Below the pieces are notes generated by a model. The model had not been told where the DNA came from and made no database searches. It worked only from the letters and a program-made list of their open reading frames with translations. This document shows positions 1 through 1,125 of a stretch of 12,912 bases of DNA, in pieces. Every line of letters begins with the position of its first letter. The stretch's first letter is position 1. Origin of the DNA: Escherichia coli (GTDB lineage Bacteria; Pseudomonadota; Gammaproteobacteria; Enterobacterales; Enterobacteriaceae). Made by a program: the position numbers and the translations under genes. The DNA is taken from assembly GCF_003334305.1 (NCBI RefSeq), contig NZ_QOWS01000042.1; one strand, written 5' to 3'.

Positions 1-1125
1 CCAGCCTGTTGGCGGAGTGGCTGAAGGCCACGGAACAGGCACCCCAACCGGTAATGCAGAGCCTTCTCCTAAACCAAGGTATGTGAGAAGACCAGCTACA
101 TCCTTTCCACTCAAATTGGTAAGCGTATTGTCCAGCGGTTGTTTACCTGCCAGCGCATTAAGCATTGTCGTGGCAAAGTTCGGATCATTCCCCAGTGCCG
201 CCGCCAGTTCGTTCAGTGTATCCAGTGCAGCAGGTGCAGAACCCACCATTCCTGCAATCGCCGATTTCACAAAAGCCGTAGTGGCAATCTGTGTATTGTT
301 GACCGACTGCGCCGCCGTGGGGGCTGTTGGCGTTCCGGTGAGTGCCGGACTCGACAACGGTGCTTTTAGTGCCAGCGCATTGTTAATGGTGGTACTGAAA
401 TTCGGATCATTGTTAATGGCTGCGGCTATTTCTTTCAGCGTGTCCAGCGTGGCTGGCGCACCATTAATAAGGGCCGTCAGTGCCGCCTGTACAAACGCAG
501 TGGTCGCAACCTGCGTGGTATTATTCCCCGCCGCTGGCGTTGGCGCTTTGGGGGTTCCGGTAAATGTCGGGCTGGCTTTTGGCGCGTACTGTGAATGCGG
601 GTCCGGTGCGGCAAGATGTTTTGCCATCTGATCATCCGCGTAAACCTTCAGCTCCAGTGCCTTGTCATCCACATACTTGCGGGTTGCCAGCACTACAGCA
701 GGGTCGATTTTCAGGGTGATATTGTCCGTGCTGCTGGTAATCAGCACCATGCGCACGGTCTGAGTGCGCCCGCTACCTTCAGCCAGTTGCGGCTTATAGC
801 TTTCCGGGCAGTTGCCCACGGCAATCAATGCCCCGGACTCATCAAACAAGCCCACTTCACGTATCCACCAACCGCCCTCGTTTTCAGGGATCACCTGTTC
901 GGCAATAATCTGGCTGCTGTTCTGCGGGTCGATATAAAGCATATTCAGCGCAGCCCGGCGTTTCTCATTTACCAGTGCCGTCTGCTTTGCGTCCGGCGTT
1001 GGCAATACTCCACCGCCATCGCCCACCGCCATATGGGTAATTTTTAGCGGCACACCGAGCGCGGCGGCGCTGGCAAGTTTCGCCGCGCCAATATCCGTCA
1101 GCAGGGTATAAAATTTTGTGCTCAT
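1..1125 (-). CDS. H: Tail fibre protein, P2 gpH-like; N-terminal ~375 codons only, C-terminus lies beyond the window start
   Basis: Hand translation of the minus strand in the frame ending at 1125 is open to position 1. It begins MSTKFYTLLTDIGAAKLASAAALGVPLKITHMAVGDGGG, resembling the P2 gpH N-terminus as recalled, and contains ...NDPNFATTMLNALAGKQP. The ATG at 1125..1123 overlaps the stop of gene I (ATGA). Missing from the ORF track only because it has no stop inside the window. Confidence 0.85.
   Translation of the reverse strand, partial: MSTKFYTLLTDIGAAKLASAAALGVPLKITHMAVGDGGGVLPTPDAKQTALVNEKRRAALNMLYIDPQNSSQIIAEQVIPENEGGWWIREVGLFDESGALIAVGNCPESYKPQLAEGSGRTQTVRMVLITSSTDNITLKIDPAVVLATRKYVDDKALELKVYADDQMAKHLAAPDPHSQYAPKASPTFTGTPKAPTPAAGNNTTQVATTAFVQAALTALINGAPATLDTLKEIAAAINNDPNFSTTINNALALKAPLSSPALTGTPTAPTAAQSVNNTQIATTAFVKSAIAGMVGSAPAALDTLNELAAALGNDPNFATTMLNALAGKQPLDNTLTNLSGKDVAGLLTYLGLGEGSALPVGVPVPWPSATPPTGW
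142..585 (-). repeat. Tandem duplication of a ~74-codon (222 nt) tail-fibre repeat unit inside H (units 364..585 and 142..363), diverged copies
   Basis: Both units translate to SPxxTGTPxAPTxxxxNNTQ(I/V)ATTAFVxxAxxxxxxxAPAxLDTL(K/N)E(I/L)AAAxxNDPNF(S/A)TTxxNALAxK. Nucleotide similarity is visible, e.g. 'aaattcggatcatt' near 166-185 and 398-412. Confidence 0.7.

Follow-up and report, generated by a model that had tools for sequence, protein, structure and literature searches.

Two probable b1- and b2-type repeat units, apparently of ancient origin, in the tail fiber gene H of a P2-like prophage

In bacteriophage P1, the RefSeq record (NC_005856.1) annotates a 'repeated element b1' and a 'repeated element b2' of 222 nt each. 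Both are located in the constant part Sc of the tail fiber gene S, where the Cin crossover site cixR follows directly, and GenBank M81956 is given as the reference for the annotation. In P2, the tail fiber protein gpH (NP_046775) carries the N-terminal domain PF12571, is encoded after genes I, J, W, and V, and includes a single b unit, followed by KQP and a YLGL motif. More distant carriers include the lambda side tail fiber Stf, Gifsy-2 Stf, BcepMu, mycobacteriophage minor tail proteins, and cyanophage PSS2, in which one unit or its helical half was found at 50-72% identity. These carriers differ in that the unit is usually present in a single copy, within another fiber architecture and in other phage families. 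The repeat, its period, and its occurrence in unrelated phages are said to have been treated as tail fiber mosaicism by Haggard-Ljungquist et al. 1992, Sandmeier et al. 1992, and Sandmeier 1994. PMC3945230 cites these three papers.

The stretch of DNA analyzed here (the window, 12,912 nt) covers the late (virion) region of a P2-like prophage. On its minus strand, the tail fiber gene H comes first, I, J, W, and V homologs come next, and additional genes extend from there to the small terminase, the major capsid protein, and the scaffold; its plus strand encodes the large terminase and the portal protein. Klebsiella P2-like prophages are about 97% identical to it across the whole window. Gene H starts with an ATG at 1125 and runs off the left end of the window, where translation from 1125 to 1 yielded the first 375 amino acids of a P2-type fiber, beginning MSTKFYTLLTDIGAAKL. 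This segment shares 99.4% nucleotide and 100% amino acid identity with Escherichia phage 500465-1 (Peduoviridae, Wadgaonvirus), whose counterpart of H is a 502-aa 'tail protein'. The element that hosts H is a P2-like prophage of the Peduoviridae, of the Wadgaonvirus type. The following features were identified:

1..1125, minus strand: 5' part (375 codons) of tail fiber gene H, from its translation, its matches, and the flanking I, J, W, and V homologs
676..1125, minus strand: N-terminal baseplate-attachment domain, aa 1-150 (Pfam PF12571, Phage_tail_fib)
577..675, minus strand: linker from the N-domain to the repeat, aa 151-183, from sequence comparison
355..576, minus strand: unit 1, aa 184-257, probable b1 type, ASPTFTGTPKAPTPAAGNNTTQVATTAFVQAALTALINGAPATLDTLKEIAAAINNDPNFSTTINNALALKAPL, from self-alignment, a unit HMM score of 138.5, and the match to P1 b1
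133..354, minus strand: unit 2, aa 258-331, probable b2 type, SSPALTGTPTAPTAAQSVNNTQIATTAFVKSAIAGMVGSAPAALDTLNELAAALGNDPNFATTMLNALAGKQPL, from self-alignment, a unit HMM score of 141.5, and the matches to P1 b2 and P2 H
63..89, both strands: cix/gix-like DNA-inversion crossover site, H codons ~346-354 (LTYLGLGEG), from the inverted repeat in 500465-1 and the likeness to P1 cixR

The Phage_tail_fib model was matched over its full length (1-150) with an E-value of 8.4e-65, and the N-termini of P2-type H proteins share approximately 49-52% identity with the N-domain. The open reading frames upstream of H matched tail and baseplate PHROGs. As in P2 gpH-like fibers, H therefore combines an N-terminal Phage_tail_fib domain with a position downstream of the baseplate genes J and I. 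The linker (aa 151-183) had no match in Pfam, and it lacks the 'a' repeats (…LSSATNS.SET.AATPKAVK…) that are found at this place in P2 H, which has two of them, and in P1 S. The block that follows is common to the window H and P1 S, and consists of b1, b2, a short connector, and the cix-like inversion site, in that order. H of the window is thus evidently a mosaic of a P2-type N-domain (aa 1-150), a short linker, and a block also present in the P1 fiber S. A plus-strand open reading frame at 17-631 (204 aa), antisense to the repeat region, was rejected as a gene, since it is the minus-strand frame that has full-length homologs; its presence is most likely incidental to an Ala/Thr/Pro-rich coding strand.

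The repeat in the 5' part of H consists of two 74-codon units (2 x 222 nt) on the minus strand that are in frame and align without gaps. A sequence-only reading of the same DNA had described two consecutive units of about 74 codons at 142-585 with roughly 60% identity, and its coordinates, length, and identity all agreed with the ungapped 74-aa self-alignment, in which 45/74 residues (60.8%) and 139/222 nt (62.6%) were identical. The strand was missing from that description. In its register, the units occupy 364-585 and 142-363, and translation of 142-585 on the minus strand gave APKASPTFTGTPKAPT...NALALK followed by APLSSPALTGTPTAPT...NALAGK, which are two complete units. Within the 375-aa fragment, the top-scoring local self-alignment paired aa 184-257 (355-576) with aa 258-331 (133-354) without gaps, which is a rotation of that register by three codons. 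Identity between the units varied among codon positions (66%, 82%, and 39%, respectively), and the longest identical run in register was 12 nt. Neither Tandem Repeats Finder nor an exact-seed repeat search on the DNA reported anything at period 222, hence the repeat is visible at the protein level only. The full-length protein of 500465-1 contains exactly two units by the unit HMM scan, and they are the same two as in the window.

No Pfam-A family was found on the units at E <= 0.001, either in the window protein or in 32 diverse two-unit segments, so that the Pfam scan for a tail fiber repeat proposed in the sequence-only reading came back empty. Similarly, no NCBIfam family was found on the unit. 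A match to Acyl-CoA_ox_N, also precomputed on homologs, where it is faint and spurious, was weak (E = 0.06-0.23) and was dismissed as noise. The unit therefore offers no annotated function to lean on.

A unit HMM was built from the repeat and reference fibers were scanned with it. It identified one unit in P2 H (aa 256-327), in agreement with the single copy expected there beforehand, two adjacent units in P1 S, and none in Mu S. Unit 1 of the window is 81% identical in amino acids to unit 1 of P1, and unit 2 is 82% identical to unit 2 of P1 and 78% identical to the single P2 unit. In contrast, identities were 61-68% between units inside one protein and 61-66% for the other pairings. At the nucleotide level, the counterparts share 73% (b1) and 70% (b2), versus 61-62% for other pairings. 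P1 S matches the window H over aa 181-340 at approximately 81%, and the interval 142-585 coincides exactly with the P1 b1/b2 register. Like the P1 elements, the window units are two abutting in-frame units of 222 nt (74 codons) each in b1-then-b2 order, each resembles its P1 counterpart more closely than its neighbor, and they are positioned in the constant part of the fiber, just upstream of a crossover site of the Cin/Gin type. The two units are very likely elements b1 and b2 of the kind repeated within the constant (shaft) region of tail fibers in enterobacterial phages.

Because each window unit is nearer to its P1 counterpart (81-82%) than to its neighbor (61%), the duplication appears to be older than the split between the P1 copy and the window copy. 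An identity of only 39% at third codon positions indicates that synonymous sites are saturated, which points to a long divergence under constraint at the protein level. As judged from these comparisons, the b1/b2 duplication is evidently ancient, predates the split between P1 and the window, and is not an event in this genome. The window units are best described as old paralogs, each orthologous to one unit of P1 S, and the single P2 unit belongs to the second (b2) type. The two-unit repeat is an ordinary finding, as it had already been described in the P1 annotation.

Differences from P1 S were observed on both sides of the repeat. The N-terminal domain of P1 S is unrelated, 'a0/a1' repeats stand ahead of b1, and the connector from b2 to cixR (…LTALAGLATGANKLPYFTG…VIQYLGL) is longer than in the window H. 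Compared to the window units, P1 b1 has an N-half that looks b2-like and a C-half that is b1-like, and in this it resembles the chimeric middle units of three-unit alleles described below. This mixed composition hints at possible earlier rounds of exchange between units. In P2 H, no match to the inversion site or to an invertible segment was seen.

The two-unit block was present in 925 of 5,426 complete E. coli genomes (about one in six, including derivatives of E. coli B), where presence was defined as at least 80% of window positions 100-640. Among the best 120 protein clusters, 106 had two units, seven had three tandem units, one had four, and the remaining six had two units plus a diverged third after a YLG(L/I) motif. 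Two units therefore represent the majority state of the lineage. Rather than a noteworthy change, as had been supposed from the sequence, the two-copy state is ancestral, in the majority, and previously annotated.

A search with a single unit against 1.84 billion cluster representatives returned 25,774 matches at E <= 0.001. The best 150 of these contained from zero to 11 full units per protein, the commonest spacing between consecutive full units was exactly 74 residues (60 pairs), and the N-terminal half-motif alone was repeated up to 22 times; this list was ranked by summed score, by which multi-copy proteins were enriched. In a phage collection, the unit was found at 373 places in 311 records, with two copies in P1-like phages and one each in P2 and lambda Stf, and many actinobacteriophage minor tail proteins contained only the helical half.

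Near-identical H alleles with one, three, or four units also exist, with chimeric in-register junctions. Three-unit alleles are carried by GCA_045610785, GCA_014051965, and CP182004. For example, in the complete genome of E. coli 17MR471 (L005), H is exactly 222 nt shorter and contains one chimeric unit, b1-like to about nt 66 and b2-like beyond, with the reading frame intact. Among the three-unit alleles, L007 carries a whole-unit duplication of b1, in which unit 1 and unit 2 are 97.7% identical in nucleotides; in L009, the middle unit follows the last unit for nt 1-143 and then switches to the first; and in L008, the junction is near nt 86. Additionally, the protein P0002 has three b1-type units and a b2. 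All of the one-, three-, and four-unit alleles keep the reading frame. Since their junctions fall at differing places, they are indicative of independent, recent, in-register unequal crossovers. Judged from these alleles, the units evidently still undergo occasional in-register unequal crossover, which generates in-frame variants of one, three, or four units in near-identical prophages. The suggestion that copy number changes by recombination thus held for the relatives, but 'hotspot' was overstated for the window allele, in which no in-register run of identity between the units exceeds 12 nt, so that it would be a poor substrate for RecA-type recombination.

Several other explanations of the two units were considered. 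A chance resemblance of Ala/Thr/Pro-rich low-complexity sequence, or an artefact of assembly, draws on the biased composition of the protein and on the low-complexity filter of BLAST, which clipped the first 15 residues of the unit. However, the self-alignment score of 233 far exceeded that of 2000 composition-preserving shuffles (36.4 +/- 6.7, maximum 68; z = 29), the 74-aa alignment is ungapped with conserved motifs, and hundreds of complete genomes that were assembled independently contain the block; chance or artefact was refuted on these grounds and is hardly credible. A recent, lineage-specific tandem duplication in the window H from a one-copy P2-like ancestor would account for the single copy in P2 H, and such duplications do occur in relatives, as in L007. 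The sequence-only reading had likewise implied a gain of a copy in this gene. The window units do not resemble a recent duplicate or copy-number variant, with 62.6% nucleotide identity, 39% at third positions, and no shared run above 12 nt, and the two-unit block extends beyond the 925 E. coli genomes to prophages of Klebsiella and Salmonella. As each unit is orthologous to P1 b1 or b2, the matrix of unit identities refuted a recent duplication in the window allele, and this origin is considered very improbable.

Two further proposals concern selection on the units. One is that two copies are held because the units have distinct roles and are not interchangeable length modules; b2, for example, may be indispensable as the joint with the connector and inversion site, and b1 may be an expandable spacer. 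Consistent with this, the last unit is of b2 type or has a b2-like ending in the alleles examined and is followed by KQPL or KQPK in P2, P1, the window, and the one-, three-, and four-unit alleles, the added units are of b1 type or end in a b1-type C-half, and the combination of diverged synonymous sites and conserved protein motifs speaks for purifying selection acting on each unit. In contrast, the one-unit chimera of 17MR471, with a b1 N-part and a b2 C-part, retains an intact frame in a complete genome, and arrays of up to 11 full units occur elsewhere, so that this proposal appears unlikely. The other is that the number of b units (one to four) is an actively selected length polymorphism, which would match the reach of the fiber to a host surface layer (capsule or O-antigen) of a given thickness, and that the synonymous divergence between b1 and b2 was selected against recombinational collapse of the two-unit allele; this is a speculative proposal and rather improbable as it stands. 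The reading of the two units as long-diverged b1 and b2 elements of the constant fiber part was retained.

The constant part of the fiber appears to end at the cix-like site at 63-89. Its core, ACCTTGGTTTAGGAGAA on the sense strand of H, is nearly identical to ACCTTGGTTTAAGAGAA at the annotated P1 cixR. In 500465-1, the same 27 nt pair with an inverted site 1.8 kb away that is 81% complementary, and this partner site adjoins a DNA invertase gene; alternative fiber-end and assembly genes also follow in this phage. The invertase gene of the system is located outside the window; the partner arm and the invertase were seen in 500465-1. Many phage matches to the window break at 63-65. Given a crossover site at 63-89, window positions 1-62 would already belong to the invertible, variable segment of the fiber. 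Additionally, E. coli, Salmonella, Klebsiella, and Enterobacter yielded over 100 distinct protein clusters that are 100% identical over aa 1-375 and differ in total length (453-544 aa), which would fit a swap of the receptor-binding end at the inversion site.

The repeat is positioned between the PF12571 N-domain and the inversion site, and is thus part of the constant stem, to which an exchangeable receptor-binding end is attached. In a profile search of solved structures, the helical half of the unit matched the mycobacteriophage Bxb1 gp4 (9d93; E = 3.4e-13) and the upper fiber gp68 of the S. aureus phage 80alpha (6v8i; E = 9e-5), and the N-half matched the fiber gp24 of cyanopodophage A4 (9k09; E = 7.8e-8). 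According to PMC12002296, A4 gp24 forms a trimer whose stem is helical. The likeness lies in the helical half (…SAPxxLDTLNELAAALGxDPNFATT…) or in the N-half (SPxLTGxPxAxT…NDTSIATTAHV). These are partial matches at the sequence level, and none of the three proteins has the full 74-aa unit in tandem. AlphaFold2 monomer models were poor, with a mean pLDDT of 40 without an alignment and 49 with a 32-row alignment; at this low confidence, they suggest that each unit begins with about 25 non-helical residues and continues with three short helices.

Based on these comparisons, the repeat is most likely a modular spacer of a trimeric stem, placed between the baseplate-binding N-domain and the cix-like site at which the receptor-binding end is swapped. 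Each 74-aa unit would consist of an extended N-half rich in Pro and Thr (SPxhTGxPxAPT…NxTQIATTAFV) and a C-half that is helical (APxxLDTLxElAaAlxNDPNF…L..K), and the units would stack as segments of the stem. The stacked units may then determine how far the exchangeable receptor-binding tip stands from the baseplate. A change in copy number would presumably alter the length of the shaft, and the number of units could tune fiber length with specificity left untouched.

The discovery value of the repeat is small, as the P1 annotation already records it along with its period and its occurrence in unrelated phages. For engineering and annotation, the boundaries of the units, like the inversion site, are safe places at which to join fiber chimeras, and the natural series of alleles with one to four units is a ready-made set for tests of stem length versus adsorption. 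The unit is very widespread among cluster representatives, but neither Pfam nor NCBIfam has a model for it, and a domain model would be worth building.

The unit also appears to be a composite, as its N-half occurs alone in the arrays of up to 22 copies and its helical C-half occurs alone in the actinobacteriophage minor tail proteins. Additionally, the 543-aa proteins P0008-P0014 include a third, strongly diverged unit at aa 361-433, with a score of about 75 compared to about 140. It follows a YLGI motif, which is the counterpart of the codons for YLGL at the crossover site of the window, and this third unit is seemingly in the variable part of the fiber.
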